From: an uncultured Nitrososphaerota archaeon
GTDB taxonomy: Archaea > Thermoproteota > Nitrososphaeria > Conexivisphaerales > DTJL01
Direction of reading: 5' to 3'
Length of the DNA: 64,000 nucleotides
NCBI GenBank assembly: GCA_963842885.1
Contig: CAWJIE010000005.1
Coordinates: 320,001 to 384,000, forward strand
Position 1 is the stretch's first letter. Each line of letters begins with the position of its first letter. This document shows, in pieces, positions 1,847 to 21,722 of the stretch. The notes under the pieces were generated by a model that worked only from the letters and a program-made list of their open reading frames with translations, had not been told where the DNA came from and ran no database searches. The position numbers and the translations under genes are program-made.

Positions 1847-2539
1847 ATGAAAGTGAGCGCCTTCGCCGTCGACGTCGACGGCACGCTGACGGCTGAAGAG
1901 GGAGGGGTGGACCTCGAGGCCGCTTCGGTCCTCGCTAACGTGGAGCGGCTGGGCTATCCGGTCGTGCTCGTCAGCGGGCGGAGCGGCTGGGAGCTCCTGG
2001 CCCTCTCCATCAACCTCGGCCTTTCGCGGGTCGTAGTGGGCGAGAACGGCGGCGTGACGGTCTTCAAGAGCCCCCTCAGCATCCGTCTATGGGCCGACAA
2101 CACCCAGCCCACGCTCGCCTACGAATACCTGTCGAAGAGGATCGACGGACTGGTGCTCAGGGACACCTTCCCGCGCTTCACGGAGGTGGTGCTCGAGAGG
2201 ACCATGGACGTGGGCATACTGAGGAGGGAGCTGGCGGGGAGCGGCATCGGTGTGAAGGTGCTGGACAGCGGCTACGCCTTCCACATCACCAACGTCGGCG
2301 TGGACAAGTCACTGGGGCTCTCGAAGGTCCTCCAGCAGATGAAGGTCCCTCCCGAAGAGGTGGTGGCCATAGGCGACAGCGAAACCGACGTCCCCATGTT
2401 CAACCTCGTCGGCTACAGCGTGGCCGTGGGGAACAGCGACGCCGCCGCCCGCGCGGCATCCAAGCACTTCGTCAAGGGCAAGCAGGGCGAGGGCGTCATC
2501 GAGGGAGTTGGCTTTACCTTCGAAAGGTTGGTTCGATGA
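1847..2539 (+). CDS. HAD-family phosphoglycolate phosphatase (archaeal SPP-like)
   Basis: DVDGTLT motif I, SGR, GENGG, DKS, GDSETD motif IV; its stop codon lies in the left TIR of TnpB element 1. Confidence 0.85.
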   Translation: MKVSAFAVDVDGTLTAEEGGVDLEAASVLANVERLGYPVVLVSGRSGWELLALSINLGLSRVVVGENGGVTVFKSPLSIRLWADNTQPTLAYEYLSKRIDGLVLRDTFPRFTEVVLERTMDVGILRRELAGSGIGVKVLDSGYAFHITNVGVDKSLGLSKVLQQMKVPPEEVVAIGDSETDVPMFNLVGYSVAVGNSDAAARAASKHFVKGKQGEGVIEGVGFTFERLVR

Positions 2540-2597
2540 ATTCACCGGCTGATGTTGGTCCTTAAATAGAATCCAAGTCTGCTCCTTCGGCTCACCG

Positions 2598-3812
2598 TTG
2601 CAGGCCGTCAAATCTGTCAAACAGAGGTTCGTCCCTTCTAGAGAAGTGCTCACCCTAATGGAGACGTTCAGGAAGATGACCAACGTTTGCATCTCCATTG
2701 GGACGGAGGAAGAACGAAAAGGCGATCGGATCTTGACACTGATGAAGTTATGCAGGCTCTCATATCACTCGTTCGATAGATACGACATTGCCTCATATTA
2801 CAAGGTCTGCGCGATCTCCAGGGCAATGGGCATCCTTTCAGCACGGAAGAAGTCTATGAAGAGAGGCATCTCTACCAAGACACCCTACGCAGTCAAATCG
2901 ATCCTCTCTTCATGCTATGGATTCAAGGTGGAAGAAGGGAGGCTGAAGGTCCCGCTCGGTAGCAGGCGATTCGCTGAGATACCGTTGAACAGGCATACTC
3001 TGCAAGTGCTCTCGGAACCTGCCCTGAAGGTGCGCTCCTTCACGCTGAGTGCCAACAGCACCCTGAGTTTGTGCATCTCCAAAGAAGTGAAGGAGAGGGA
3101 GGTCACAGCGACGGCGGGAGTGGACAGGAACCTTAGGAACGTCACTTATGGAAACTGTAGAAGGGCGGTCCAGTACGACTTGAGCCAGGCCGTGAACATT
3201 GCCGAAAGGACGAGGTCCATCATATCATCGTTCAAGAGGAATGATGTCAGGATCAGGCGGAGAATAGCAATCAGGTACGGAAGGAGAAGGGCGACCAGGA
3301 TCCGGGAAATGCTCCATCGGTCAACCAAGCAAATGGTGAGGATGGCGATTGAATGCAGAGAAGCCATCATCTTGGAGGACATCAGGGGGATTAGGAAACT
3401 TTACCGGAAAGGGAACGGGCAGGGATCAAAATACAGAGGTATGATGAATTCGTGGTCTTTCTTCGAGGTGCAAAGACAGATAGAATACAAGGCCAGATGG
3501 GAGGGGATACCGACCGTACGGTTGACAGGGAACGAAACCAGAGGGACGTCGTCGCACTGTCCCAAATGCGGGGAGAGACTCCAATGGGCAGACAACGACG
3601 ATGGCCAGCATAGGAGGCAGCTCTGGTGCAGGACGTGTCAGAGGTGGTTGGATAGGGATGTAGCTGCCGTCATGAACCAATCTCTGAAGGGGTGGGTGAG
3701 GCTCGCCCATTCCAAAGGCGAAGCATGTGAAGCTATGAATGGGAACCAGACAACTCCTGTAATCCTTAGAGTGGATGCTTCGAAGTCAAGTTGTCAGCAG
3801 TCCAGCCGATGA
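2598..3812 (+). CDS. tnpB: TnpB RNA-guided endonuclease
   Basis: RuvC-I GVDRN, RuvC-II LEDI, Zn finger CPKC...CRTC, RuvC-III DRDVAAVMN. Confidence 0.92.
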   Translation: MQAVKSVKQRFVPSREVLTLMETFRKMTNVCISIGTEEERKGDRILTLMKLCRLSYHSFDRYDIASYYKVCAISRAMGILSARKKSMKRGISTKTPYAVKSILSSCYGFKVEEGRLKVPLGSRRFAEIPLNRHTLQVLSEPALKVRSFTLSANSTLSLCISKEVKEREVTATAGVDRNLRNVTYGNCRRAVQYDLSQAVNIAERTRSIISSFKRNDVRIRRRIAIRYGRRRATRIREMLHRSTKQMVRMAIECREAIILEDIRGIRKLYRKGNGQGSKYRGMMNSWSFFEVQRQIEYKARWEGIPTVRLTGNETRGTSSHCPKCGERLQWADNDDGQHRRQLWCRTCQRWLDRDVAAVMNQSLKGWVRLAHSKGEACEAMNGNQTTPVILRVDASKSSCQQSSR

Positions 3813-3824
3813 CTTGGCAGAGCC
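3685..3824 (+). ncRNA. Putative omega/reRNA scaffold of TnpB copy 1 (5' boundary approximate; guide would follow 3824)
   Basis: Conserved across three copies; stem CGAAGCAT/ATGCTTCG and loop GGCTC complementary to terminal GAGCC both covary with copies 2 and 3. Confidence 0.7.
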
Positions 3825-3876
3825 CGAAAGGTTAATCAAAGCAGGGTCGCATCGAAGATAGGGAATAGGTGAACAC

Positions 3877-5789
3877 CTGACGTTCAGAGAAGCCCAGGCC
3901 GAGGCCAGCCGCCTCATCGACGGCGCCCTGCACGAGATGGGGGTCGAGCCGATGCCATACGCATTCTCCGAACCTCCCCACCCGGACCTCGGCGAGCTAA
4001 CCTGCAACGTCGCTTTTTCGCTGGCCAAGGTCCTCGGCCTGTCGCCAAAGGACGCGGCGGCCAGGGCTGTCGAGAACATCAACTTCAGGGACTCACGGTA
4101 CGTCCTCAGCGCCCAGGCCCATCCCGCCGGCTACATCAACTTCAGGCTGAACCTCCCGGAGCTGGCGTTTGAGACCATCAACGCCGCCATAGGGGACCCG
4201 AACTTCGGCTCGCTGAAGTACGGAGCCGGCAAGAAGGTAATAGTCGAGCACACCAGCGTCAACCCGAACAAGGCCCTTCACATCGGCCACGCGAGGAACT
4301 CCGTCGTAGGCGACACCCTCGCCCGGATCTACAGGAAGGTCGGGTACAATGTCGAGGTCCTCAACTACATCGACGACACCGGCATCCAGGTGGCCGACGT
4401 CATCACCGGCATGCTCTACGGGGACCTGCCGAAGAAGGCCGCCTTCTGGAATCAAGTACGACCAGTACTGTGGAGACTACGTCTACGTCAAGGTAAACGA
4501 CCTTTACACGCTGCAGCCAGACCTCGTCGAGAAGAGGAAGGAGGTCAGCAGGGCCATAGAGGAGGGGGACAACAAGACGGCCAAGATGGCCCAGGAGGTG
4601 GTGGAGAAGGTGGTCAGGGCCCAGCTGGAGACGCTGGCGAGGATGAACATCCAGTACGACCTCCTGAACTTCGAGAGCCACATCCTCCGGACGGGTTACT
4701 GGGACGAGGCCTTCGACCTACTCAAGAAGAAGGGCGTGGTCAAGCTGGCGACGGAGGGGAAGCTCAAGGGCTGCTGGGTCCTGGAGTCGGACGAGGAGGG
4801 AGAGGAGAAGGTCCTCGTCCGCAGCGACGGCACCGCCGTCTACGCGGCGAAGGACATCCCCTACGCCGCTTGGAAGATGGGCATCCTCCCCGACCGCTTC
4901 GCCTATGTCAAGTTCCTGATACAGGCCGGGGGAAGGCAGCTCTGGGCCACCTCGCCGGAGCCCAGGAAGAAGGGGGGGAAGGGCCCCATCTTCGGTGGGA
5001 GCGACCTCTGCGTTTCGGTCATCGGCGCCAGCCAGAGCCGCGTCCAGCGGTTCGTGGCCTTCGCCCTGGAGAAGCTGGGCCTCGGCGACAGGACCTACCG
5101 TCACCTCGCATACGGAGAGGTCAGCCTCAGCAACGAGACCGCTAAGGACCTCGGCATGAAGGTCAAGGACGACAAGGAGTCCCTCAGGATGTCCGGCCGC
5201 TTCGGGATCTACGTCAACGTAGACGACGTGTTGGATTCCTTAGGTCAGAAGGCCAGAGAGCAGAGCGCCCACGGGAACCCTGGGGCCTCAGCTGAGTTGG
5301 CTGTCCTTCGTCAGCGAAAAGCTGGCCGTGGCCGCCCTTCGCTACGACATGGTCAAGCAGGACCTGGACAAGACCGTCACCTTCGACCTCAAGGAGTCGC
5401 TCAAGCTCGAAGGGGACACCGGCCCGTACGTCGTCTACAGCTACGCCCGCGCGTCCAGGCTCCTGGAGAAGATGGGATTCACCCCCGTCAAGCTCACAAG
5501 GCCGGTCGCGGCGCAGCTGAAGGGCGTCGACGAGAGGCGCCTCTTCCTGCTGATGTCTAAGTTCGACATGGAGCTGGAGAACGCGGAAAGGGCGATCGCA
5601 CCTCGCAAGATCGCCCAGTACGCCCACGACCTGGCCGTCGCATTCAACCAGTTCTACGAGACGTCGCCCGTGATCTCCGAGAAGGAAGTCGAAGTCAAGA
5701 AGGCGAGGGCCTACCTCGTCCTCGGGTACAAGATGGTCATGCTGGAGGTCCTCGCCCTCCTGGGCATCGAGCCGCTGACCGCAATATAG
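3877..5789 (+). CDS. argS: Arginine--tRNA ligase (split over three frames, probable sequence errors)
   Basis: VEHTSVNPNKALHIGHARN HIGH motif, RSDGTAVY, MSGRFG, EGDTGPYVVYSYAR; in-frame CTG start after AGGTGA. Confidence 0.9.
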
Positions 5790-5834
5790 AATCCTTTATT
5801 TCAGGGAGAAGGGCCTAGGTCTACTGTCATCCTT

Positions 5835-6458
5835 ATGGGCCTCAGAGAGATATTCATCCCACAGGATAAGATATTCTTCGAGCTTCTTGAAAGGGAGTCC
5901 CAGAACGTCCTCCAGGGCGCCCTGGCCTTGAAGGACTTCGTCAACGACTTCACCGACGTCCCCGTGAAGAGGGACAAGATCAAGGAGATAGAGCACAAGG
6001 GCGACGATATCGTCCACGAGATCTACCTCCGCCTGAACAAGAGCTTCATCACCCCCATCGACCATGAGGACATCGCCAAGCTCGCCTCCAGCTACGACGA
6101 CGTGATCGACTTCATCTACGCCACGGCCAACAGGCTCGCCCTCTACGAGGTGGGCCAGACCACGGTCGTCATGAAGCAGTTCGCCGAGATCATCCTCTCC
6201 AGCGTCCTAGAGCTGGACAGGGCCTTCGCCTCCATGCGCAAGCTCAGCAAGGACATAGACGAGCGCTGCAACGAAGTGGACAGGCTCGAGAACGTGGCCG
6301 ACGTCCTCCTCAACGAGTCCGTGGCCGACCTCTTCAAGAGCGGCGACCTCCTCCAGATAGTCAAGCTGAAGGAGATCTACGAGCACATGGAGGGGACCAC
6401 CGACAAGTGCGAAGACGTGGGATACGTCCTCCGCGACATAGTCATGAAGAACACCTGA
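5835..6458 (+). CDS. DUF47/PhoU-like phosphate transport regulator
   Basis: EHKGD...FITPIDHEDI, ENVAD, TDKCEDV motifs; lies upstream of Pit. Confidence 0.85.
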   Translation: MGLREIFIPQDKIFFELLERESQNVLQGALALKDFVNDFTDVPVKRDKIKEIEHKGDDIVHEIYLRLNKSFITPIDHEDIAKLASSYDDVIDFIYATANRLALYEVGQTTVVMKQFAEIILSSVLELDRAFASMRKLSKDIDERCNEVDRLENVADVLLNESVADLFKSGDLLQIVKLKEIYEHMEGTTDKCEDVGYVLRDIVMKNT

Positions 6459-6459
6459 G

Positions 6460-7472
6460 CTGATCGCCCTGACCGACTTCCTCTACGTAGCCGGCATCAT
6501 CTTCGTCGCCTATTCGTTCGACTTCTTCAACGGCTTCCATGACGCCGCCAACGCCATCTCGACGGTGGTCTCGACGAGGGTGCTCTCGCCACAGAGGGCA
6601 GTGCTCCTGGCCGCCTTCTTCAACTTCATCGCCTTCGTGGTGTTCGGCGTGGCCGTCGCCGGCTTCATAGGCTCAGGGATCGTCAACCCCCATTTCGTCG
6701 ACGCCAACGTCGTCCTCGGCGCGCTTAGTGGGCGCCATCTCCTGGGACATCATCACCTGGAGGCTGGGGCTGCCCACCAGCTCCTCTCACGCCCTGATAG
6801 GGGGTCTCGTCGGCGCCACCGTCACCAAGGTCAGGGTTCTCCGTCGTGGAGTGGGCGGGGCTGTCGAAGGTCGTCGCCTTCATGTTCATCTCCCCTCTCG
6901 TGGGTATGGCCGCCGCCTTCGGCCTCTCCATAGTCTTCATCAGGATCTTCTACAAGAGCACTTCAGCCACTATCAACCAGTACTTCCGCCGGCTTCAGCT
7001 GGTCTCCTCCAGCCTCCTCAGCCTGAGCCACGGTACCAACGACGCCCAGAAGACGATGGGGGTCGTGACGTTGCTGCTCTTCAGCGCGGGCTACGTCTCC
7101 TCCGCGGCTGTCCCCCCACTCTGGGTGGTCCTTGCCGCCCACTTCTCCATCGCCCTGGGCACGGCTCTCGGCGGCTGGAGGATCGTCAGGACCATGGGCA
7201 TGAGGATCACGAAGCTTCAGCCCTTCAACGGCTTCGCCGCAGAGACGGCCAGCGCAGCGACCATCATCACGGCCTCCTTCCTCGGCATACCCGTGAGCAC
7301 CACCCATGTGGTCTCCGGCGCGATAATGGGTGTAGGGGCGACCCGCAGGCTGTCCGCGGTGAGATGGGGCATCGCCAGGAGGATCGTCTTGGCTTGGTTC
7401 GTGACCATCCCGGCCTCAGCGGCGGTCGCATCCGTCTCCTATTTCGTGATCTCTTCCTTCGTCCACCTATGA
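6460..7472 (+). CDS. pit: Inorganic phosphate transporter, Pit family (frameshifted)
   Basis: NGFHDAANAIST, GLPTSSSHALIGG, HGTNDAQKTMG, PVSTTHVVSG across frames. Confidence 0.88.
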
Positions 7473-8136
7473 GCGTCTGAGATGCTCAAGGAGCTCCTCG
7501 AGGTTCTCAAGGTTGGGCATCCCCAGCTCCTCTGCCAGCTGACGGTTCCCCACGACGAAACCCCTCCCGGCGGCCCTGAGGAACGAGGAGTCGTACCTGC
7601 TGTCTCCCACACAGACCGTGTCCTGGAGCTTCACGCCCATCCTCTTGGCAAGGCCGGCCAGGACGAGGTCCTTTCGAAGGGGCTCGACTAGGGGGTAGAG
7701 CTTGCCGTTGAAGTTGCCTGCCCTGTCGAAACCTATCCTGTTGGCCATCACGTACTTGATCCTCAGCTTCCTCGCGACGGCCTTCGCCATGAGGTCCAGG
7801 GCCGAGGTTACGATGGCGATTTCGTAGCCGAGAAGCCGTAGGTCGTCCACCACGCCCGGGGCCTCAGGCCTCATGGTGTACCCTCCCAACACGTCGAGGA
7901 GCTCCTCCCTCTTCAACGGCCTGGGCCACGCCGAAAGGTCCCTTTTCATGAACTGGACGTAGCTGATAGTGTAGCCGGAGTAGTCCCTGTGAGCCTGCTC
8001 GGCCGCCCTCAGCGGTCCCGAAGTGCTCGTGGAGCATCTCCCAGCTGGGGGTCCCGGTCAGCAGGGTGCCGTCGAGGTCGAAGGCCACGAGCCTCCTGAC
8101 CTTGGTGAACCTTCCTTCACGCTCCTTGACCCGCAC
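7467..8136 (-). CDS. HAD-IB phosphoserine-phosphatase-like hydrolase (frameshift near 8010)
   Basis: AFDLDGTL in the first frame; VTSA, ANRI, K and VGDSRYD in the second. Confidence 0.8.
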
Positions 8137-8237
8137 GTCGAAGAAGTCCGATTACACGCATATATATTGTAGCCGGGGTGAGTTGGGGCAAGGACTTCGC
8201 GATGCAGGACGGAGACTTCCCGAGGGTGTAGCCTGAC

Positions 8238-9224
8238 TTGAAGGTGAGTTACGTCACGCTCGCTGCCATCGTCCTGAGCGTAATCATCCTCGTCATCATC
8301 ACTTCGGTCAGCGGCATCAACCCCGCCGTCATCCTCACCCTCGGGCCCCTGTTCCTGCTCGGGGCCATCGCCTCGGTCCTGCTGAGGCTCCTGTTCCAGG
8401 GGCTGCGCTTCAACTACATCCTCAGGTCCTTCAGCGAACGGAGGTACGGCTTCCTCGAGAGCGTGGCGGTGCGTATCGGAAGCGAGTTCGTGGCCCAGAC
8501 CAGCGCCGCCTACGTCGGGGGAGAGGTGGCCCGGGCGGCTTGGATGGCCAAGAACGGGGAGGCATCGGGGAAGGCCCTCTGGCTCCCCTACATCGAAATC
8601 GTCTTCGATGTGTTCGCCGGGAACTGCATCGGCGTTGTCGCCGGTGTGATTGCCATCCTATCCGGCGACTCCTTCCTGGGTGGCGTCGTCCTCGTCCTGT
8701 CGCTCTTCATACTCTCCTTAGTCACCTCCGTGGTGCTGCTTTCAAGGAAGAGGTTCATTCACATGCCCTCGTTAGCGATGACACCCCTAAGATGGGTGGT
8801 GGGGGAGCGCCGAGCCACAGGCCTGTTCGAGAAGGGGAACGCCTTCATGGCGGAGTTCTGTGAGGCGGCCACCCATACGTTCACACGCAGGAACTCGGTC
8901 AAACTCCTAGTCATCGGCGCGTGTACGGCCGTGATGGTGCTGCTGACCGTGTCGACTCTATGGTTGGTGGCGCTCGGACTGGGCCTGCCCCTGTCGTTCG
9001 TCGACTGCGCGCCGCTCGTCTACACCTCCATCGTCCTCGGCAACCTTCCGATAACGCTCGGCGGCTCCGGTGTGGCCGAGGCGGGCATCTACTTCTATGC
9101 TTCAGCGGTCTTCAACGTGAGCTCGTGGCCCATGGTCTTCGCCTGGCGCATCTTGAGCTACCATTTCGTGCTCCTCATCACGGGGATCCCGGCCTTCGTG
9201 ATACTCCGCAGGTACACCAAGTGA
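8238..9224 (+). CDS. Lysylphosphatidylglycerol-synthase TM domain / flippase-like membrane protein
   Basis: Multiple TM helices; GGEVAR, PITLGGSGVAE, WRILSY motifs. Confidence 0.75.
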   Translation: MKVSYVTLAAIVLSVIILVIITSVSGINPAVILTLGPLFLLGAIASVLLRLLFQGLRFNYILRSFSERRYGFLESVAVRIGSEFVAQTSAAYVGGEVARAAWMAKNGEASGKALWLPYIEIVFDVFAGNCIGVVAGVIAILSGDSFLGGVVLVLSLFILSLVTSVVLLSRKRFIHMPSLAMTPLRWVVGERRATGLFEKGNAFMAEFCEAATHTFTRRNSVKLLVIGACTAVMVLLTVSTLWLVALGLGLPLSFVDCAPLVYTSIVLGNLPITLGGSGVAEAGIYFYASAVFNVSSWPMVFAWRILSYHFVLLITGIPAFVILRRYTK

Positions 9225-9228
9225 GCTT

Positions 9229-9537
9229 CTAGGCTCCCGGCACTGCACCCTCTTTCCGCTTGGGCAGATTGATGAGGTAGAGGGCGCCATATGCTAGGCA
9301 GACCCACACGAGGAAGTCCACGATCAGGTAGAAGGCGTTGACCTTGAAGAAGCTCGAGGGGCCCACCGGCGACGCCACCTCGAAGAGGACGAACTGAAGG
9401 GGAAGGCCTGCCCCCTTCTCCGAGTAGGTGATGGGGCCCCGAGAGTTGGAGGTGACCCATTGATAGCTGAACGAAACGCTCAGGCTCAGAAGCAGGATGA
9501 CTGCCCCCGCGGCAATCGCGATAGTGCTTCTCTGCAT
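9229..9537 (-). CDS. Small membrane protein, unknown function
   Basis: N-terminal signal/TM and second TM; host-like codon usage. Confidence 0.55.
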   Translation of the reverse strand: MQRSTIAIAAGAVILLLSLSVSFSYQWVTSNSRGPITYSEKGAGLPLQFVLFEVASPVGPSSFFKVNAFYLIVDFLVWVCLAYGALYLINLPKRKEGAVPGA

Positions 9538-9565
9538 CCCAAGGTCTCTCCTGGAGGGGCTCCCG

Positions 9566-10246: not shown

Positions 10247-10355
10247 CGCGTCTTCCCTCAGGCTGGCTGGCGATTTAAGCCTTGGACGATTTCTCCTCTG
10301 GAAAGTTGTCGGTTGATGTAGGCCCTTAATAGTGATTCCGAACTGCATCCTTGAT

Positions 10356-11426
10356 TTGCTGGCCAGGAAGGCGGTGAGGCAGTCGTATTCTCCGTCTGCG
10401 GAGGTCCTAGGCCTTATGTGGTCGTTCAAGGAGATGACGAACGAATGCATCCGCATAGGTTTGGCCAGCCATGCTTCGACTCTCAGGCGCCTGGACTTCC
10501 TCTGTTATCGCAACCTCGCAAGGTTTCGCGTCCCATCATACTACAAGCTTTGCGCAATCTCAAAGGCCGCAGGCATACTGGCATCAAGGAAGAAGTCCAT
10601 CAGGAGGGGATACCCGACAAAAACGCTATACCTGAAAGAGCCGATGTTGACTTCTTGCTATGGCTTCAAGGTCACCGTTGCCGCTCTCAGCATACCCATT
10701 GGGGTTCGCCAGCACGAGGAGATACCACTGAACAGACACACATTGGGTGTACTGTCCGACTCGACGCTGAAAGCGAACTCCTTCACGCTGACTGAGACGT
10801 CTCTGTCAGTCTCTTACTCAAAAGAGGTGGAGAAGGTTGAGGGCCTAGCTGGAGCCGTCGGGGTGGATAGGAACCTGCGCAACCTTACGGTAGGCGACGA
10901 AAGGAAGGTGACCTATTATGGCATGGCGAAGGTCGTGGACATTGGGGAAACCACGAAGAGCGTGGTCAGGTCGTTCAAGAGGGACGATGTTAGGATACGA
11001 AAGAGAATCGCTTCGAAGTACGGGAGGAGGAGGCACTACCGCATCGAGAGCTTCCTTCACAAAGTCTCCAAGATGGTCGTAGCCGATGCTGTGAAGGAAA
11101 GGCAAGCCATAGCCTTAGAAGACATCGGACACATCAGGAGGCTATACCAGAAGGGGAACTGGCAAGGAAAAAGCTACAGGGGGATGATGAACAGCTGGCC
11201 CTACGCCGAGATCAAGAGGCAAATCGAGTACAAGGCGACATGGGCTGGCATACCGGTGATTCATCTGACTAAAGCCGAGACCAGAGGGACGTCGTCGAGC
11301 TGCTACCGATGCGGGGAGAGACTCCAAGGGGCAGCGAAGGAGGGCGTCCAGCATACAAGGCAGCTCTGGTGTCCGAAGTGCGGGATGTGGTTCGACCGCG
11401 ACTTGGTCGCCGTATTGAACATCTAG
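10356..11426 (+). CDS. tnpB: TnpB RNA-guided endonuclease (early TAG just after RuvC-III)
   Basis: GVDRN, LEDI, CYRC...CPKC, DRDLVAVLN; homologous tail continues after the stop. Confidence 0.9.
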   Translation: MLARKAVRQSYSPSAEVLGLMWSFKEMTNECIRIGLASHASTLRRLDFLCYRNLARFRVPSYYKLCAISKAAGILASRKKSIRRGYPTKTLYLKEPMLTSCYGFKVTVAALSIPIGVRQHEEIPLNRHTLGVLSDSTLKANSFTLTETSLSVSYSKEVEKVEGLAGAVGVDRNLRNLTVGDERKVTYYGMAKVVDIGETTKSVVRSFKRDDVRIRKRIASKYGRRRHYRIESFLHKVSKMVVADAVKERQAIALEDIGHIRRLYQKGNWQGKSYRGMMNSWPYAEIKRQIEYKATWAGIPVIHLTKAETRGTSSSCYRCGERLQGAAKEGVQHTRQLWCPKCGMWFDRDLVAVLNI

Positions 11427-11429
11427 TAT

Positions 11430-11558
11430 AAAGGGCGGGTGAGGTTCGCCCATTCAAAAGGCGAGGCAGCTGAAGCGATGAGGGGGAACCAGACGATGCC
11501 TGCAATCCTCAGAGTCGATGCCTCGAAGGGAAGCGCCAGACGATAACGTCCCAGAACC
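11430..11558 (+). ncRNA. Putative omega/reRNA scaffold of TnpB copy 2
   Basis: GGTTC (11443-11447) complementary to terminal GAACC; stem CGAGGCA/TGCCTCG. Confidence 0.7.
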
Positions 11559-11604
11559 CGGAAACCTATTATAGCGAGAGGGCTCGTCCATTTCGTGCTG
11601 ACCC

Positions 11605-12459: not shown

Positions 12460-12633
12460 CCCATAGGACTTCCTCCTGATCGGATATTATAGGAAAGGGC
12501 TGTGCCGGGCTTATGAGCTTTCATCGATTCGCGATGAGGGGCTTCATGCGCAACGATTCTAGCTTACGACCGTAGCCCCAACCTATTTGCCGAAGTCCGG
12601 AGCAGATGTGCTGCCCTCAGAGCGGCTTCTCGA

Positions 12634-13835: not shown

Positions 13836-14332
13836 ACCCCCAAGGCGACCACGAAGAGCTGATAGAAGGCGAAGGCCATCAGCACGAAGGAGGCGATGAC
13901 GATAGCTATCCCTATCTGCTTCTGGCTACCTCTGAGGCTGCTGGGCAGGAAGGGATACGTAGGCCTCTCCACCTTGCCGATGAGCCAGCCCTGCTCGGAC
14001 ATTACCAGCCGTACACCGTTCATACTGTGAAAGACGGCCGCCGCGGCCACCAGGAGGAGGCCGGTGTGGAAGGCGTAGTTGGTGAGGAAGCTCATCAGGC
14101 TGGTCCAGACTACCGGCTTGAGCCCCTGCTCCACGTCCAGGAAGGCCTGGGCGGCATTGCTCGTCTCCCAGATATGCATCACGAAATAGATCCCCACGCC
14201 CACGCCCGTGATCCTGTGCATGGCGTAGAGCCACCTCTCGAAGTTGCGGTTCCAGAACTTTATCCATCCACGGTATAATCCGGCGTTGTTCTTCTTCTCC
14301 ATCACGGAGTCCTGCTCCATCATCCTCACCAT
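13832..14332 (-). CDS. sdhC: Succinate dehydrogenase cytochrome b subunit
   Basis: HRITG, FHSMNGVR motifs; operon context. Confidence 0.85.
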   Translation of the reverse strand: MVRMMEQDSVMEKKNNAGLYRGWIKFWNRNFERWLYAMHRITGVGVGIYFVMHIWETSNAAQAFLDVEQGLKPVVWTSLMSFLTNYAFHTGLLLVAAAAVFHSMNGVRLVMSEQGWLIGKVERPTYPFLPSSLRGSQKQIGIAIVIASFVLMAFAFYQLFVVALGV

Positions 14333-14333
14333 C

Positions 14334-16050
14334 TCAATACTTCCTCTCCATGGGAGCCCACTTAGTGATCACCACGGGCTTGTACTCGACCCTGGGGCCT
14401 TCTGGCGTGTAGTAGACCATCGAATGCTTGAGGAAGTTCACGTCGTCTCTCTTCGGGTAGTCCTTCCTCGCATGGCCTCCCCTCGACTCCTTCCTCAGGA
14501 GGGCGGAGGTGACCAGGGCGTCCGCGACGTCCAGGAGGTTCCCCACCTCCAGGGTGCCCGTGAGGTTGGTGTTGAAGTTCTTCGACTTGTCCTCAACCCT
14601 CACCCTGGCGTACCTTCCGCGAAGCTCCTTGACCTTCTTCAGCGCCTCGGTCAGGCCCTGCTCGGTCCTGTAGACGTAGACGTTGTTGTCCATGGCGGCC
14701 CAAAGCTCCTTCTTGATGGCGTAGGGGTCCTCGCCCTGCTCCCTTCCGAGGAGATCGACGAAGATGCGGTTCTCCTCGGCCTCCATTCTGGAGGCCGGCA
14801 GGCCGGGCGCCGACGCCCCCTCCATGATGTACTTTGCGGCCTTCTCGCCGGTCAGCCTGCCATACACGAGGCAGGCAGTGGTGGAGTTCGCGCCCAGGCG
14901 GTTCGCACCGTGGACGCTGACGCAGGCGCATTCGCCGGCGGCCCAGAGCCCCTTCGCTGTGGTCTCGCCGTTGATGTCCACGTCTATGCCTCCCATGCTG
15001 TAGTGCGCGACCGGCCGGATAGGGAGTGGCGCCTCGAGCGGGTCGATGCCGACGAAGTTGTGCCCGAGCTCGATCATCATGGGGAGCTTCTCCTTGACCT
15101 TCTCCGCCCCTATGGGGCTGAAGTCCAGGAGGACGTAGTCCAGGCCGTTGGGGCCCTTGAAGCCCCTCCCCTGCTCGATCTCCGTGACGATCGACCTCGA
15201 AATCAGGTCGCGGGGTGCCAGCTCCAGCTTCTCTGGGGCGTACCTCTTCATGAAACGCTCGCCCTTGCTGTTGACCAGGATTCCCCCTTCTCCCCTGACG
15301 GCCTCGGTGATCAGTATCCCGGAGGGGACGAGCCCCGTGGGATGGAACTGGACGAACTCGACGTCCTTCAGGGCGATGCCGGCCCGGTAAAGCGCGCCCG
15401 CGCCGTCGCCCGTGACGCTGTGGCTGTACGTAGTGAAGCCGAAGAGGCGCCCCAGCCCACCCGTGGCTACTATCACCGCCTTGGCGGCGAAGCCCACCAG
15501 CTCCCCCGACTTCATGTTGATGGCCGTGATGCCCCTGCAGACCCCGCCCTCCAGGACGAGGGAGGTGAGGAACCACTCCTCGTAGAAGTGGACGGAGGTG
15601 TACTTGAGAAGCGTGTCGTAGAGGGTCTGCATCTCATAGAAGCCGGTCTTGTCCGCGGCATACGTGGCCCTGGGGAAGCTGTGCCCTCCGAAGGGCCTCT
15701 GGGCGATCCTGCCGTCGGGCCTCCTGCTCCAGGGCATCCCCCAGTGCTCAAGCCTCAGTATCTCCTCGGGGGCGAGCTTGACGAATGACTCCACTACGTC
15801 CTGGTCGGCCAGGTAATCCGCGCCCTTGACCGTGTCGAATGCGTGAAGCTCGACGCTGTCATTCTCGTCTGTGTAGAGGACGGCGGCCGTCCCTCCCTCG
15901 GCGGCGACGCTGTGCGCCCTCATGAGATGGACCTTGGAAACTATGGCGATGTCGAGCTTGCCGTTGCTGACGATGGCCGCCTGGATCGCCGCCCTCAGGC
16001 CCGCCAGCCCGGCGCCCACGATAACCAGATCATGGCTGACAGTGTGCGTC
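14334..16050 (-). CDS. sdhA: Succinate dehydrogenase flavoprotein subunit (start approximate)
   Basis: GAGLAGLRAA, RAHSVAAEGG covalent-FAD His, QFHPTG, HGANRLGANS, RKESRGGH. Confidence 0.95.
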
Positions 16051-16266
16051 TAGATCACCGTTACGGGAATTTGGAGGTTCTTGAGGTATAAAAAAGTTGG
16101 CGTCGGACGATTCTTGCCTCAGACGAGTCGTTTCCTACTTTTATTTCATGCACTGCCCCCTCCGGCTGATGGTTCGGCAGGAAAGCCAGGCTTCTACTCG
16201 CAGAAACGCCCCTATCTTGTGCTAGGTGAAAGAGACAGACAAAACGAAAGGGCTCTTAGAAGCCGC

Positions 16267-16425
16267 TCAGCCGATGATGTAGACAACAGTGACCTGTGCT
16301 GTTTCCGTCGCTGGGCCTGCATTGAACTGCGGCGTCTTGGTTCCGCCCGACATTACGGCCAGGGACGCCGTGATGGCGAGGGCTATCACGAGAAGAGACA
16401 GCACCTTGTACCTTTCCTGCGGCAT
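16267..16425 (-). CDS. Small putative exported peptide (52 aa, below ORF-track cutoff)
   Basis: MPQERYKVLSLLVIALAITASLAVMSGGTK...VTVVYIIG*; AGGTGA Shine-Dalgarno upstream. Confidence 0.5.
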   Translation of the reverse strand: MPQERYKVLSLLVIALAITASLAVMSGGTKTPQFNAGPATETAQVTVVYIIG

Positions 16426-16566
16426 TACACTTCTTCACCTACCACCACTGCCGGGAGGAGGGAGTTAGCGCTAACCAATGAAACGGAACCTTCCACCCCG
16501 TTCTACCCTCCCGAACGCCCCCCGGCGGCAAAGCTTTAATCGCCATCTGGCCTCAACAGGCTCGTC

Positions 16567-16984
16567 TTGAAGCGCGACGACCGGCTCTCCGCCTCCACCG
16601 TGAAGGTCTACGTCTTCCTTCTCAGGAAGGGGGAGAGCGCGGGCGTCCGCGAGGTGCAGAGGGCCATGGGTTTCAAGAGCCCCAGCGTGGCCTATTATCA
16701 CCTGAACAAGCTCATCGAGATGGAGCTGGTGAAGCAGGACCAGTACGGCGCCTACGTGGCTGAGAGGAAGGTGGACGCCAGCGCCCTCGGCCCCTTCCTG
16801 CTCCTCGGCTCGGTCATCGTGCCCCGCTTCGTCTTCTACGCCGCCTTCTTCTCGACGTTCCTCGCGCGGCTACCTCCTGGTGTACCGCCTCAATTCCAGC
16901 GTCGAGCTGATCGCCGTGGCGGCCCTGGCTGCCGCCTTCTTCTGGGTCGAGGCGCTGCTTGCTTGGCGGAGGAGGTCCTTCTAG
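16567..16984 (+). CDS. Membrane-anchored winged-HTH regulator (frameshift near 16868)
   Basis: GVREVQRAMGFKSPSVAYYHLNKLIEMELV wHTH then VPRFVFYAAFF TM; paralog of 56147-56593. Confidence 0.75.
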
Positions 16985-17244
16985 CGGTAGGTGGCGGAGC
17001 CCTTCTCCTTGTCCTTCTTCATCAGGTCCTTCGGGATGCTCACCATCCTGATGAGGTTCGTGTTCTGTATGGCGTAGACGGGAAGCCCCGTGTTGGGGTC
17101 GTTGCCCATCCTGAAGACGGCGGTCACACTGCTCCTGAACTTGAGGACGCTGCCGTCCTTGAGCTTCAGAGTGACCCAGCTGTCCTCCCCCTCCGCTTCG
17201 AACTCCACCAGCTCGCCTCCCTGAATGGGCATGGGCATGCTCAA
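16981..17244 (-). CDS. Small hypothetical protein
   Basis: Host-like codon usage; LKDGSVLK...DPNTGLPVY. Confidence 0.6.
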   Translation of the reverse strand: MSMPMPIQGGELVEFEAEGEDSWVTLKLKDGSVLKFRSSVTAVFRMGNDPNTGLPVYAIQNTNLIRMVSIPKDLMKKDKEKGSATYR

Positions 17245-17369
17245 AACTTGCTTACCTTGTGCTTCGGGGTGGCAGGTCTCTATAAGCCTTCTGCATCGCC
17301 GAGCCCGCCCTCCCTGTTCTATTGATTAGAGCTTAATCAACTGGCTTTGATACTCAAGGCAGACAAGCG

Positions 17370-17864
17370 ATGCAGACCGCCAGCGCTCCTTCCCCCGTCC
17401 GCGGCCTAGCCATCGCCCTTCTCCTTGGGGTGGTGCTTGCCGCCGCAGCCGTGGGGTTCCTGGCCAGCGTCCCCTCTTCCTTGGAGCTCACCGGCGCCTC
17501 TCAGAGCTCCCCGTCGACGAACCAGACCAAAACAACCCAAGGAGGCCAGGCTGGTGCTTCGGTCCCGACCTCCAGCAACAACACTACCTCCTGGTCCAGC
17601 GTATTTGCAGTCGTCAACTCCACCTCCCCCAGCATCATGAGCGTGGGTGACATCGCCGCTGCCATCTCGGGCGGGAAGGGGGTGGGCGCATCGAATTCCA
17701 GCATCTCCGGGAGCACCTCTGAGAACGCCTCGAATGCAGCCCTGACCTACGGCCAGGAGAGGTCCGCTACCGTGGCGACGGCCTGGAGGGATCTGGCCAT
17801 CTTCGCCGCCGCCGGAGCACTCGCGTCGGCGGTCTTCCTCCTCTCAAGGCGCCGGGTGTCCTAG
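17370..17864 (+). CDS. Ser/Thr-rich membrane-anchored surface protein
   Basis: N-terminal TM, low-complexity S/T linker with NxS/T sequons, C-terminal TM plus RRR. Confidence 0.6.
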   Translation: MQTASAPSPVRGLAIALLLGVVLAAAAVGFLASVPSSLELTGASQSSPSTNQTKTTQGGQAGASVPTSSNNTTSWSSVFAVVNSTSPSIMSVGDIAAAISGGKGVGASNSSISGSTSENASNAALTYGQERSATVATAWRDLAIFAAAGALASAVFLLSRRRVS

Positions 17865-17926
17865 CGGCTGGCGACTAATGCGAAACGTTCTTTAGAAGTC
17901 AAGGGCCCACATGGGCTAGATCTGAA

Positions 17927-18724
17927 ATGGCAAAACCCACCATATTGGTAAGCAACGACGATGGGCCCACCAGCAGAGGTCTTCACGCGCTGGTGCGAGC
18001 CCTCCTCGACGTGGGCGAAGTGGTCCCGGTGGTCCCGGAAGGCCCCCGAAGCGGCACCTCCATGAGCCTGACCTGGCACAAGCCCCTCAGGATCCGCGAG
18101 GTCCAGATCGCCGGGGTGAAGGGATTCGTCGTGTCGGGCAGCCCGGCCGACGCCGTCATGATGGCGCTCAACAAGGTGCTCGAAGAGAAGCCTGATGCCA
18201 TGGCGTCCGGCATCAACATCGGAGACAACACGGGCCTGCAGGACGTCTACGCCAGCGGCACGGTTTCGGCCGCCCTCCAGGCGGCCCTCTCGGGAATCCC
18301 CTCTGTGGCCTTTTCCATGCAAATCTCCGAGGACGTTGTCTTCTCGCCTGCGGAGGCCAGGGCAGATTTTGGGACGGCCGCCTTCCACGCCAGGAGGGTC
18401 ATGCACTGGCTGGCCAAGAACCGCCTCCCCGAAGGAGTGAACTTCCTTAACGTGAACATCCCATCCAATGCGGCCCTGAACACGAAGGCCGTCATCACCA
18501 AGCTGGCCCTCCACAAGTACGACAACTTCATCGTGGAACGCCTTGATCCTCGAGGAAAGCCCTACTACTGGGTCTGGGGGAACAGGAAGAAGAATTACGA
18601 GGATGGAAGCGACGCCAAGGCCATCATAGAGGATGGCCTGGTCTCTGTGACGCCTCTCCACATGGATCCCACCTGGCCCGCCAAGGGCATCGAAGGGCTC
18701 CTGAGCAGCCTCAATGGGCAATGA
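17927..18724 (+). CDS. surE: 5'/3'-nucleotidase SurE
   Basis: ILVSNDDG, SGSPADAV, SGINIGDN, SGTVSAA, DPRGKPYYW, SVTPL. Confidence 0.93.
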   Translation: MAKPTILVSNDDGPTSRGLHALVRALLDVGEVVPVVPEGPRSGTSMSLTWHKPLRIREVQIAGVKGFVVSGSPADAVMMALNKVLEEKPDAMASGINIGDNTGLQDVYASGTVSAALQAALSGIPSVAFSMQISEDVVFSPAEARADFGTAAFHARRVMHWLAKNRLPEGVNFLNVNIPSNAALNTKAVITKLALHKYDNFIVERLDPRGKPYYWVWGNRKKNYEDGSDAKAIIEDGLVSVTPLHMDPTWPAKGIEGLLSSLNGQ

Positions 18725-19312
18725 CGGGAAAGCGTTTATCCCCCCACCTTCGCCCGGACCTTGACTTGACCGAAACGAAGCCCAAGATCCTCGATTCTGC
18801 AGTGGTATTCCGGGGGGAGAAGCTGGAGATCGTCCGGGACACGCTGTCGTGGGGGAGGGACAGGGAGGCTGCCGTCGAGACGATACTTCATCCCGGTGCT
18901 GTGGCCATCCTCGCCGCCACGGCGGACGGCAGAGTCATCCTCGAAAGACAGTACCGTCACTCCGTCAACAGCTTCCTCTACGAAGTGCCGGCCGGCACCC
19001 TGGAGCCCGGCGAGGAACCCGCGGAGTGCGCGTCAAGGGAGCTGCTCGAGGAGACCGGATATCGGGCCGCCTCCTTGAAGAAGCTGGGAGCCATCTACAC
19101 CGCGCCGGGATACAGCTCCGAAATCCTCCACCTGTTCATGGCCAGGGCCGTCAGGGCTGGGGGCCAGAGGCTCGAGGACGACGAGGCGATACTCGGTGTC
19201 CCTTCATAGTCCGAAGGAGGCCCTGAGGCTGGTCATGAGTGGCGAGACTTCAGACGCCAAGTCGATGATCCTCTTGAAGATGGCGGTTGCCGACCCGGGC
19301 CTTCTGTCCTAG
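18721..19312 (+). CDS. Nudix hydrolase, ADP-ribose pyrophosphatase-like (frameshift near 19195)
   Basis: HPGAV, PAGTLEPGEEPAECASRELLEETGY Nudix box, DAK motif in shifted frame. Confidence 0.85.
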
Positions 19313-20334
19313 GAGGCGCCCGCCGGGGAGCCCGTCGGTTCCTTCAACGTGCTGTGCTCGAAAGCGGCGGCTCCAGGCGTGAGGACCTTCTTGATCCTGT
19401 TGACGCACGTCGTCCCCTGGGCGAAGCCCACTACGAGGAGGTTCTGCTTCAAGGTGTCCTTGGGCGATGCCACGTCGCCGGCGGCATATATCCCGGGGAC
19501 GCTCGTCTCGAAGTTCGAGTCCACGGATATGCCCCTCGGGTCCATCGATATCCCCCACTGCTTCACGATGCTCAGGTCGGCCTTGTAGCCGACGAGGACG
19601 AGGAGGGCGTCGCATTCCAGCGTCTCCGTGGCATCAGTCTGAGAGTTCTTGATGACGACCTCCCTGACCCAGTCGTCCCCCTTCACCTCGACCATCTCCG
19701 ACCAGAGCCTGATGTCGATGTTGGATGTCTTGAGAGCCTCTACCGATTTTTCATGGGCCCTGAAGACGTCCCGTCGGTGGACCAGGTATATCTTCGCCGC
19801 GATGTCCTTAAGGTGGAGCGCCCAGTCCACCGCGGTGTCTCCTCCCCCTATGATGACGATCCTCTTGTCCTTGAAATCTAGGGGCTCCCTGACGTAGTAG
19901 TAGATGCCCCTTCCATCGAGCTCGTTCACGCCGGGCACGATGAGCTTGTTAGGCGAAAAGGCTCCGATGCCCGTCGCTATGATGACCGCCCTGCCCAGAT
20001 GCCTCCCCCTGTCCGTGACTATCTCGAACTCCTGCGAGCTCATCCTCTCGATGTGGAGGACGCGCTCAGCGAGACAGATGGTGGGATTGAATTGGGAAGC
20101 CTGGGCGACGAGGTTGCCGATCATCTCCTTACCGTTGACTGACCTGAACCCGGGCATGTCGTAGATGAACTTGTCAGGGTAGAGGAGCGAGACCTGCCCG
20201 CCGAGGGCCTCCGTGGCTTCCAAGAGCTTCACCTTGAGGTCCCTGAACCCAGCATAGTACACCGCGAAGAGGCCGATGGGGCCCCCTCCGATGACGATCA
20301 CATCGAAGAGTTCGTCTTCGGGGGCTTCGGACAT
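19309..20334 (-). CDS. Ferredoxin--NADP reductase, thioredoxin-reductase-like (YumC type)
   Basis: GGGPIG, LYPDKFIYD, GIGAF, GGGDTAVDWA, HRR, AAGD; no CXXC. Confidence 0.85.
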   Translation of the reverse strand: MSEAPEDELFDVIVIGGGPIGLFAVYYAGFRDLKVKLLEATEALGGQVSLLYPDKFIYDMPGFRSVNGKEMIGNLVAQASQFNPTICLAERVLHIERMSSQEFEIVTDRGRHLGRAVIIATGIGAFSPNKLIVPGVNELDGRGIYYYVREPLDFKDKRIVIIGGGDTAVDWALHLKDIAAKIYLVHRRDVFRAHEKSVEALKTSNIDIRLWSEMVEVKGDDWVREVVIKNSQTDATETLECDALLVLVGYKADLSIVKQWGISMDPRGISVDSNFETSVPGIYAAGDVASPKDTLKQNLLVVGFAQGTTCVNRIKKVLTPGAAAFEHSTLKEPTGSPAGAS

Positions 20335-20383
20335 GGTTGCTTCGGTGCCGCGTATGGCTTTAGAGCACTAATATGCCTATCTA

Positions 20384-21655
20384 CGTAGTGGTGCGTCTTA
20401 GGTTGATGGTTGCCGTTAATAGTGTCCCACTGATGCATTTATGACGTGCAGGCCCTGAAGTCGGTCAGGCAGGGATTCATTCCATCAGGCGAGATTCTAT
20501 TATTGATGGAGGCCTTCAGGAGGATGGCCAACGAGTGTATCTCCATAGGGCTCGCCGACGGCGCGTCGTCCTTGAAGCGCCTCTCGAAACTCTCATATGG
20601 CAAGCTTGCAGGCTATGACGTTCCTTCTTATTACAGGCTCTGCGCGATCTCCAGGGCGGCAGGCATCCTCTCCTCAAGGAAGAAATCCATCATGAGAGGG
20701 TTCCCGACCAGGAGTCCGTACACCGTGAAGCCTGTCCTCACTTCATGCTACGGATTCAAAATCGAGGAAGGGAAACTGAAGGTCCCGCTGGGCGGGCGCA
20801 GATATGCAGAGATACAATTGAACCGTCATACCCTCGAAGTCCTGTCCGACCCAGCCCTGAAAGTGCGCTCCTTCACGCTCAGCGCCTGCACAACGTTGAG
20901 CCTGTGCATCTCGAAAGATGTGACGGAGAAGGAGTGCATCAGAACGGCTGGTGTGGACAGGAATTTGAGGAATTTGACCTATGGCAATCATGAACGCGTT
21001 GTGCAGTATGATTTGAGTGACGCCGTCAAGGTATCCGAGCGAACGAAGAGCATCGTTGCTTCGCTTAAGAGGAACGATGTCAAAATACGGAGGAAGGTAG
21101 CCTCAAAGTATGGCAAGAGAAGGGCTAACCGGATCGGCCAGATGATTCATCGTGCGATCAAGGACATGATGAAGCGTTCTCTCATCGACAAGGAGGCCAT
21201 CGTTCTGGAGGATATCAGAGGGATCAGGTTGATGTATCGGAGGGGAAACGGGCAAGGAGCTGGGTATCGTGGAATGATGAACTCTTGGCCATTCTTCGAA
21301 GCACAGAGACAGATTGAGTATAAGGCCAAGTGGGAAGGGATACCTATCATCCGTTTGACGATCAACGAAACCAGAGCGACATCTTCTCTCTGTCCTCAAT
21401 GCGGGGAGAGTCTCCAAGAGGCTGTAAGAGACGATGTCCAGCACAAAAGGCAACTCTGGTGTGAAAAGTGTCAGAGATGGCCAGACAGGGATGTCGTCCC
21501 CGTCATCAACCAGTCTCTGAAGGGGTGGGTGAGGTTCGCACATTCCAAAGGCGAGGCAGCTGAAGCGATGAGGGGGAACCAGACGATGCCTGTAATCCTC
21601 AGGGTGGATGCCTCGAAGGTCTGTCTTCGGCAACAACCGAAGACGCACCAGAACC
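20384..21655 (+). mobile_element. TIR-bounded TnpB-only element, copy 3 (8 bp TSD CCTATCTA at 20376-20383 and 21656-21663)
   Basis: Left CGTAGTGGTGCGTCTTAGGTTGATG vs reverse complement of right end GGTTCTGGTGCGTCTTCGGTTGTTG, 20/25; exact 8 bp flanking direct repeat. Confidence 0.85.
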
Positions 21656-21672
21656 CCTATCTAGATTCCTGA
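20446..21672 (+). CDS. tnpB: TnpB RNA-guided endonuclease
   Basis: GVDRN, LEDI, CPQC...CEKC, DRDVV; frame reads through the right end into the flank. Confidence 0.92.
   Translation: MQALKSVRQGFIPSGEILLLMEAFRRMANECISIGLADGASSLKRLSKLSYGKLAGYDVPSYYRLCAISRAAGILSSRKKSIMRGFPTRSPYTVKPVLTSCYGFKIEEGKLKVPLGGRRYAEIQLNRHTLEVLSDPALKVRSFTLSACTTLSLCISKDVTEKECIRTAGVDRNLRNLTYGNHERVVQYDLSDAVKVSERTKSIVASLKRNDVKIRRKVASKYGKRRANRIGQMIHRAIKDMMKRSLIDKEAIVLEDIRGIRLMYRRGNGQGAGYRGMMNSWPFFEAQRQIEYKAKWEGIPIIRLTINETRATSSLCPQCGESLQEAVRDDVQHKRQLWCEKCQRWPDRDVVPVINQSLKGWVRFAHSKGEAAEAMRGNQTMPVILRVDASKVCLRQQPKTHQNPYLDS
21518..21655 (+). ncRNA. Putative omega/reRNA scaffold of TnpB copy 3
   Basis: GGTTC (21533-21537) complementary to terminal GAACC; stems CGAGGCA/TGCCTCG and GTCTTCGG/CCGAAGAC. 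Confidence 0.7.
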
Positions 21673-21722
21673 TTACTGAAAGGCATGATTCTAAGAAAAC
21701 ATGAGCTTCCCCACACAGGAGT

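Follow-up and report, generated by a model that had tools for sequence, protein, structure and literature searches.

TnpB units with IS6-type ends and target-site duplications in a Nitrososphaerota archaeon: a probable family of non-autonomous transposons carrying an OMEGA module

The accepted role of TnpB is to restore copies of IS200/IS605 and IS607 elements that are lost by scarless excision, and neither group has terminal inverted repeats (TIRs) or target-site duplications (TSDs), according to the available parts of PMC13565253 (a 2026 review) and PMC3119063. In the IS1341 group, as described in the same parts of these two sources, a single tnpB lies in an element of about 1.3 kb, an omega-RNA overlaps the 3' end of the gene and extends to the right end, TIRs and TSDs are absent, and the Y1 transposase inserts the element directly 3' of a target-adjacent motif (TAM) of 4-5 nt. 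Furthermore, six DDE-associated TnpB branches (DDE-1 to DDE-6) with inverted terminal repeats have been described (PMC10691335; Altae-Tran et al. 2023, PNAS), together with solo TnpBs whose ends resemble those of transposase-bearing relatives and which were proposed to be mobilised in trans. In the main text of that paper, as far as it was accessible, IS630 is the only DDE family named, the phrase 'target site dupl' is absent, and IS6 does not appear, although the supplement may list it. The accessible passages of PMC13565253 give ISL2, IS630 and IS1031 as TnpB-linked DDE families and ask what makes the linkage of OMEGA modules to DDE transposons so rare, while those of the IS6 review PMC7986276 never mention TnpB and list ISDsp3 as the only member with a passenger. 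Here, we analysed a window of 64,000 nucleotides (G000:C5:320001-384000) of an uncultured Nitrososphaerota archaeon, whose assembly G000 comprises 2.03 Mb in 11 contigs with 58% G+C. The window holds three tnpB units, c1, c2 and c3, and these units and their relatives are very probably non-autonomous archaeal IS6-like transposons whose sole cargo is an OMEGA module (tnpB and its omega-RNA).

The units share traits with several of the described systems. As in DDE-1 to DDE-6, a prokaryotic TnpB is situated in an inverted-repeat transposon with the 3' end of tnpB near the transposon end; unlike the DDE branches in the available passages of PMC10691335, the units have TSDs and a TAM-like base displaced from the left end by the TSD length. 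They resemble the IS1341 group in having one tnpB, a length of about 1.3 kb and an omega-RNA-like right part, but differ from it by their TIRs and TSDs and by a TAM-like base 8 bp from the left end. The IS607 trait of a serine-recombinase TnpA linked to tnpB was not found here. As with the Fanzors of eukaryotic TIR/DDE transposons, a nuclease of the TnpB family is carried by TSD-making DDE transposons. According to the available part of PMC13565253, Fanzors recognise the 5' TSD as part of the TAM and have the 3' TSD within the RNA scaffold, whereas here the TSD of 8 bp is variable, the putative guide begins with its 3' copy and the TAM-like base is situated ahead of its 5' copy. An earlier interpretation of this DNA from its letters alone (the sequence-only reading) had proposed a prokaryotic parallel to Fanzors; the units do have ends and TSDs of a DDE type, but the concept had already been published (PMC10691335, available part). 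Its statement that IS200/IS605 and IS607 lack TIRs and TSDs agrees with the two sources given above. While the general idea of DDE-linked TnpB is in print, the IS6 link, an RNA helix embedded in the TIR and a TAM-like base displaced by the TSD are absent from the literature as far as its text was accessible, and a literature search for TnpB with IS6 or IS6 family returned no paper on the association by title or abstract.

The coordinates, lengths and TIR scores of the three window units, as well as the exact flanking repeats of c1 and c3, were all reproduced as the sequence-only reading had given them (Table 1). A tblastn search of G000 revealed five full tnpB copies and one 33-aa remnant. A flank-inclusive alignment of the five copies yielded one common register, in which the left tip is situated 32 nt ahead of a TTAA(A)TAG box and the right tip reads CAGA(A/G)CC in all five. 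Each copy forms a unit of about 1.27 kb with imperfect TIRs and tnpB as the sole gene. TSDs are exact in c1 (9 bp), c3 and c5 (8 bp each), match at 7/8 positions in c4 and are absent from c2, whose flanks read ACGATTTC and CGGAAACC. At one fixed register, the chance probability is 1.4e-4 for at least 14/22 matching end positions, 1.2e-8 for 20/25 and 1.5e-5 for an exact 8-mer. A free search over many offsets also reaches end matches of 13-15/22 by chance through spurious picks; the 14/22 of c2 counts because its register was fixed independently by the alignment of the five genomic copies.

The Cas12f1-like TNB domain PF07282 passes its cut-off in the open reading frames (ORFs) of c1, c2 and c3 (E 3e-15 to 1.9e-11). 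The best NCBIfam model for these ORFs is guided_TnpB, with 82-86 bits and thus under the 100-bit cut-off, and PDB sequence matches to TnpB/Cas12f-type chains are weak. Residues D171, E255 and D349, corresponding to the RuvC-like catalytic triad, and the zinc-finger cysteines C319, C339 and C342 are invariant in 15 family proteins. The nuclease had been called apparently intact, which applies to c1 and c3; in c2, a premature in-frame TAG lies 37 codons ahead of the usual stop of the family. Judged from their sequences, the G000 copies are old; c1, c3 and c5 look functional, and c2 and c4 appear to be decaying.

Table 1. Positions of the tnpB units and their parts; coordinates refer to the window, except for c4 and c5, which are given on contigs of G000
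Feature	Position	Strand	Remarks
Element c1	2530..3824	+	tnpB-only, IS6-ended, 1295 bp; TIR 15/22
c1 left TSD copy CGAAAGGTT, 9 bp	2521..2529	.	exact repeat of 3825-3833; T at 2519 is the -2 position
c1 right TSD copy	3825..3833	.	putative guide template starts here; unique in genome
c1 tnpB ORF, 404 aa, intact	2598..3812	+	PF07282 4.1e-12; NF040570 guided_TnpB 86 bits vs 100-bit cut-off
Element c2	10294..11558	+	tnpB-only, 1265 bp, decayed; TIR 14/22, no TSD
c2 tnpB ORF	10332..11426	+	truncated by in-frame TAG 11424-11426
Element c3	20384..21655	+	tnpB-only, IS6-ended, 1272 bp; TIR 18/22 or 20/25
c3 left TSD copy CCTATCTA, 8 bp	20376..20383	.	TAM-like bases: T at 20374 (-2), G at 20375 (-1)
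c3 right TSD copy	21656..21663	.	first 8 nt of putative guide template (about 21656-21675)
c3 tnpB ORF, 408 aa, intact	20446..21672	+	runs through right TIR into flank
c3 omega-RNA-like structured scaffold	21520..21655, start approximate	+	predicted helices; equivalents ~3690-3824 (c1), 11425-11558 (c2)
c4	C5:128850-130115	-	7/8 TSD; frame broken near codon 28
c5	C2:271368-272632		exact 8-bp TSD CCGAGCTA; frame open

Relatives were counted in 401 sampled genomes of the class at E<=1e-90 for TnpB and E<=1e-40 for the IS6-type transposase, with the unpublished genomes G131, G282, G326, G230 and G364 included in both tallies. TnpB relatives are present in 37 of these genomes and the IS6-type transposase in 152. 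In genome_contigs, TnpB relatives were detected at 422 stretches labelled Nitrososphaera, Nitrosotalea, Nitrosotenuis, Conexivisphaerales and others. We examined 74 tnpB loci (36 + 38) from class genomes and 79 from genome_contigs; a script selected, for every locus, the best-matching pair of inverted 22-nt segments on either side of the gene and then scored the 8 bases flanking that pair. A candidate end pair was obtained for 125 distinct tnpB loci and, on the transposase side, for 69 of the 70 IS6-transposase loci examined. Unpublished genomes enter the denominators of 74, 70 and 125 loci via L019, L021, L027 and L049, and they were left out of every TSD count, every count of T at position -2, the RNA alignment and the protein alignment.

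Ends matching at the threshold of at least 15/22 were found in 82 of the 125 tnpB loci. Among these 82, the TSD matched at 8/8 positions in 24, at 7/8 in 4, at 6/8 in 4 and at 5 or fewer in 50, where the 8-bp register of the tally puts c1 with its 9-bp TSD in the low class and some of the low scorers are register slips in the chosen pairing. In total, 25 exact-TSD sites including c1 were obtained, each at a different locus, and the near-identical elements L081 and L083 occupy two sites of one genome. Among 25 elements tallied for their right tip, 23 end in CAGA(A/G)CC, one in TAGAGCC and one in CAGAACT, which places C at -2 in all 25. GG starts 15/25 left ends and 24/25 right ends of the tnpB units, compared with 34/37 and 33/37 in IS6-transposase elements. 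The observation that the middles of the TIRs agree within a copy and differ between copies also held: at positions 8-15, the left end of an element is identical to its own right end at 0.90 versus 0.55 for the ends of other elements (25 elements; 0/2000 permutations), the value of 0.90 being inflated because the set was chosen by TIR score. The homologs have the same TIR and TSD anatomy genome-wide, where the sequence-only reading had suggested looking, and also class-wide.

That reading had also advised searching the genome for a DDE transposase bounded by GGYTCTG ends, with IS6 as a proposed family, and such an element is present. Scanning first with the tip motif and then with a weight matrix derived from the ends pointed to the positions G000:C5:414111 and 417030. 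The segment G000:C5:414111-417030 measures 2.92 kb and is bounded by 64-nt TIRs that are 92% complementary; they begin with GGTTCTGG/GGCTCTGG and have the block GTTGTCGGTTGA in common with the left ends of c2 and c4. Its transposase ORF (376-420 aa) matches Pfam DDE_Tnp_IS240 at 5.7e-16 (59.3 bits vs a cut-off of 27) and also contains a SWIM domain. Among the 70 IS6-transposase loci, 37 have ends of the same type with an exact 8-bp TSD, and 34 of these 37 passed a loose GGYTCTG / CAGARCC end-pattern filter. When the TIRs of tnpB units were compared with IS6 TIRs of their own and of other genomes, each genome being represented by one IS6 element, the common tip was the only clear agreement. In the sister species G003, the TIRs of an exact-TSD IS6 element (L045) closely resemble the right end of c5. 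The shared traits with IS6/IS26 are a DDE_Tnp_IS240 transposase, short TIRs starting with GG, 8-bp TSDs and tandem copies 8 bp apart. Classical IS6 members comprise 700-890 bp with one gene in the accessible part of the IS6 review, whereas the exact-TSD transposase elements here measure 2.3-4.5 kb with variable cargo and the tnpB units have no transposase. No cis-linked pairing was observed: the 70 IS6 loci contain no tnpB, and no IS6 transposase was found in the flanks of the 74 + 79 tnpB loci (2.5-kb flanks for the 79).

A different DDE family with 8-bp TSDs, such as IS1595 or ISL3, might mobilise the units in place of IS6, and the N-terminus of the resident transposase does contain an IS1/IS1595-type zinc-binding domain (28.4 bits). 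However, its best NCBIfam model is transpos_IS6 with 106 bits, compared with 22.5 for IS1595 and 20.1 for ISL3; although this score stays under the IS6 cut-off of 125, DDE_Tnp_IS240 is passed, and so is the loose end filter by nearly all exact-TSD elements with this transposase. We therefore consider mobilisation by one of these other families very improbable.

It is hardly tenable that the units are ordinary IS1341-group members of IS200/IS605 moved by Y1 TnpA, in which the end complementarity would derive from subterminal hairpins and the flanking repeats from chance. TnpB-only elements usually belong to that group, the right end does have a hairpin, and the genome encodes one Y1 TnpA. Against this stand the exact TSDs of 25 distinct sites, for each of which the chance probability is 1.5e-5 when the register is fixed, and the empty sites described below, which show duplication and not scarless insertion 3' of a fixed motif beside the left end. 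In addition, the ends match those of IS6-transposase elements, while the only Y1 TnpA of the genome adjoins a different, unrelated TnpB without such ends. Linkage of the same ends to a HUH or serine TnpA, which the sequence-only reading had named as evidence to the contrary, was sought in the genome and not found: its only serine recombinase has no adjoining TnpB, and the weight-matrix end scan gave no score of 13 or more near either the Y1 TnpA or the resolvase. These two loci are G000:C5:212311-213695, an ordinary IS605-type pair of Y1 TnpA and a sixth TnpB (478-aa frame), and window positions 41178-41660 on the minus strand, where a Resolvase domain (PF00239, 94 bits) lies within a 278-aa open frame.

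Empty alleles, which had been expected to carry one TSD copy, occur in the sister species G001, G002 and G004, and those of the c1 and c3 sites do hold one copy. The c3 site is empty in G001 and G002, where TAATATG is followed by one TSD-like 8-mer and the right flank. The c1 site is filled in G002 and empty in G001 and G004, with one TSD copy in the empty alleles. At c2, all three of G001, G002 and G004 lack the insertion, and comparison with the G004 allele indicates that c2 separates its two flanks with no duplicated 8-mer. Within G000 itself, the c5 site has a paralogue (C4:16711-17421), whose match to the left flank ends at 17106 and whose match to the right flank begins at 17099; this 8-bp overlap corresponds to the TSD. 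Furthermore, two peat-metagenome runs contain contigs about 97% similar to the window in which 20382 is followed, after 44 letters, by 21708; 44 is the length of 21664-21707. The filled c3 form occurs in one of the same two runs, where contigs show presence only. The proposal of a non-autonomous family moved in trans by a DDE transposase is thus supported by shared ends, TSDs and empty sites, from which we infer the movement itself.

Several points weigh against this interpretation. All evidence comes from sequence comparison. The resident IS6 element has no TSD, its TIR is identical to none of the tnpB-element TIRs, and its transposase scores below the NCBIfam cut-off as given above. In 50 of the 82 loci with good ends, the TSD matches at 5 or fewer positions, and some loci have clear ends yet no duplication, for instance L090 and, from an unpublished genome, L021. 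The missing duplication at c2 is confirmed by the empty site of G004. The left tips are degenerate, so many units may no longer be mobilisable. Lastly, protein identity among the genomic copies is 55-82% without any close pair, and no recent movement was seen in G000. Since none of the copies is recent, mobilisation has to be read here as a historical event.

These last points lend themselves to the explanation that the units are immobile fossils, whose TnpB is kept for a host or self-maintenance role (domestication) and whose IS6 ends represent an ancient capture. The orthologous c1 insertions of G000 and G002 are 87.6% identical with a synonymous divergence (dS) of 0.47 and a ratio of nonsynonymous to synonymous divergence (dN/dS) of 0.137; c1 has therefore been kept working at one locus under purifying selection since the two species split. 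Decayed left tips, the lack of near-identical copies in G000 and the many exapted TnpBs described in the accessible part of PMC10691335 fit this explanation as well. On the other hand, the 25 exact-TSD sites are all different loci, including those of the near-identical L081 and L083, the c3 site is polymorphic among the metagenome contigs, and the catalytic triad is invariant. We regard domestication as distinctly improbable; it is compatible with the anatomy of the units and disputes their present activity only.

Alignments anchored at the right end showed a conserved block from the end of the tnpB coding region to the very tip. The structure predicted by RNAalifold for 24 elements has three helices, and compensatory changes are seen in 16 of its 21 pairs. 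In this structure, 92.1% of cells are paired compared with 65.3% in shuffled alignments (0/500), with covariation of 0.731 versus 0.238; controls with slid registers gave 35-47% paired cells, a somewhat generous comparison as the structure was derived from the same alignment. The 3' arm of helix 3 occupies positions 7-12 from the right tip, inside the TIR. According to this model, a covarying omega-RNA-like scaffold overlaps the 3' end of tnpB, reaches the right tip and shares the TIR in its last helix. The agreement of the TIR middles within a copy would follow because the middle of the right TIR must pair with the upstream RNA arm and also resemble the left TIR. The stronger decay of left tips is likewise expected in that case, because the right tip is also held by the RNA. 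A scan of the whole window with Rfam gave no family at gathering score, and a tRNA search of the window found none. The right TIR itself had been a candidate for the guide; it was dropped, as the paired scaffold reaches within 6 nt of the tip.

The flanks of the units contain a one-sided signal. Two bases upstream of the left TSD copy (position -2), a T is present in all 22 exact-TSD units of the first set, in 3/3 new exact-TSD sites of the second set and in 4/4 sites with a 7/8 TSD. In contrast, the 37 IS6-transposase elements with the same type of ends have T at -2 in 13 cases and at the mirror position also in 13 (Fisher p = 2.0e-7 for 22/22 vs 13/37). In the first set, position -1 is G10/A9/T3/C0 (IS6 elements: T18/C9/A8/G2), 14 units have T at -3, and A at the mirror position +2, beyond the right TSD copy, occurs in only 10/22. 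T at -2 is also found ahead of the protospacer in the empty G004 allele of c2, a unit that has no TSD. If the guide starts at the right tip, position -2 is exactly where a TAM must lie. From this sequence pattern, we infer that T at -2 is a TAM and a sign that TnpB acts on empty alleles.

The T could instead reflect the insertion machinery, through AT-rich archaeal promoters or a target preference of an IS6 subgroup, so that TnpB would have no part in which insertions are seen. IS6-transposase elements likewise lie in A/T-rich DNA, as seen in their upstream 8-mers, and the c3 site is situated about 45 nt upstream of the start codon of a divergent neighbour, such that the upstream TAATATG may be the TATA box of that gene. 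The TAM assignment is also burdened by resting on one strong position, compared with the 4-5 nt of characterised TAMs (TTGAT, TTAC; PMC13565253, available part), and a transposase subgroup outside the sample could have such a preference. A further difficulty is the c5-site paralogue, which has TG at -2/-1 (upstream CTGTG) and matches the putative c5 guide at 15/16 positions, yet is unfilled and without visible damage; all other second matches to putative guides in the genome have 2 or 3 mismatches in 16. However, insertions with the same type of ends have T at -2 in only 13 of 37 cases, with the same number at the mirror position, compared with 25/25 tnpB units, and a signal so strongly one-sided (22/22 vs 10/22) would not normally be expected from a transposase acting in the same way on both ends. 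The position fits a TAM for a guide starting at the right tip, which itself has C there, and the T ahead of the protospacer is retained at the c2 site. An origin of the T in the insertion machinery therefore seems to us somewhat unlikely.

Combining the predicted RNA with the TAM assignment, we tentatively propose an OMEGA module rebuilt for a replicative IS6-type transposon, an account that we consider possible, if short of probable. The last helix of the omega-RNA would be formed from the transposase-binding TIR, the guide would start with the TSD, the TAM would lie upstream of the TSD, and TnpB homing would act as a gene drive for a transposon that never excises. The mechanism that we envisage for the units themselves belongs to the main interpretation and seems to us more probable than this wider account. 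In it, both TIRs would be bound by an IS6-family DDE transposase acting in trans, which would insert the unit by an 8-bp staggered cut, possibly through replicative cointegrate formation by analogy with IS26. Transcription reading through the right end would then give an omega-RNA with the right flank as guide, comprising the 8-bp TSD copy and the next bases. In an uninserted allele, the protospacer would be preceded by the bases upstream of the TSD, with T at -2 and never C at -1, as TAM. Cleavage of such empty alleles by TnpB would let recombination copy the unit into them (homing). Filled alleles would escape cutting, since C occupies -2 at the right tip and the match between the left junction and the guide ends after 8 nt. 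In the wider account, as one helix would be built from the TIR, the right TIR, the left TIR and the upstream RNA arm would have to change together. Because insertion by the transposase takes no account of a TAM, an invariant T would mean, under the same wider account, that only TAM-adjacent insertions were fixed by TnpB homing.

The large natural family (422 relatives in one scan) ties TnpB to IS6-type ends, and it allows a clean comparison, because ends of one type are available both with tnpB and without it and differ in a flanking base on one side. If T at -2 is the TAM, the family offers a direct test of whether TnpB homing can drive a non-excising transposon, and it would also show how an omega-RNA scaffold and a transposase binding site can share nucleotides. 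It also supplies compact nucleases of about 400 aa, for which the putative TAM is possibly very short. If the T is not a TAM, the units are still a well-documented non-autonomous IS6 derivative of a kind unnamed in the accessible part of the IS6 review.

Regarding the surroundings of the window units, c1 is inserted in the last codons of an upstream 230-aa ORF (1847-2539), whose stop (2537-2539) now lies inside the left end of c1. All three units, diverged to 55-67% protein identity, have one orientation and lie inside 19 kb of core, syntenic DNA, compared with a genome total of five; since the c2 and c3 sites are empty in sister species, the units entered this neighbourhood by separate insertions. 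Over window positions 21480-21647, four metagenome runs had a summed contig depth 3-9 times that of the rest of c3, and loose contig ends there resemble right ends of the c4 type. The scaffold is therefore the most conserved part of the family, in which many copies collapse.

The resident IS6 element carries 2-3 extra ORFs, of 164 aa and 118 aa (minus strand) and of 213 aa (plus strand), for which no Pfam or NCBIfam family was found. Two of these ORFs have no counterpart in any of the other 69 IS6 loci and the third is weakly matched in 3, so the cargo of such elements is variable. Mini-elements of about 70 bp, with little beyond two IS6-type ends, are located at G000:C2:16105-16174, C3:171283-171351 and C3:382305-382373, with further ones at C2:22864 and C3:50570; by eye, the mini-elements have no TSD. 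The same end scan gave a right-end remnant on C1.

In other genomes, tandem IS6-type copies at L058, L139, L143 and L171 are spaced by exactly the 8-bp TSD and resemble IS26-like arrays, which by analogy hints at a replicative cointegrate mechanism. A similar 8-mer target was used in 7 of the 37 IS6-transposase insertions, in different genomes (L052, L055, L133, L143, L151, L153 and L058). Six of these targets read TGTT(T/C)(T/G/C)(A/G)(G/A) and one GGATTGAA, several being preceded by A(A/G)AGATAT or AAGAGTAT; this shared 8-mer represents either a preferred target or an inherited site.

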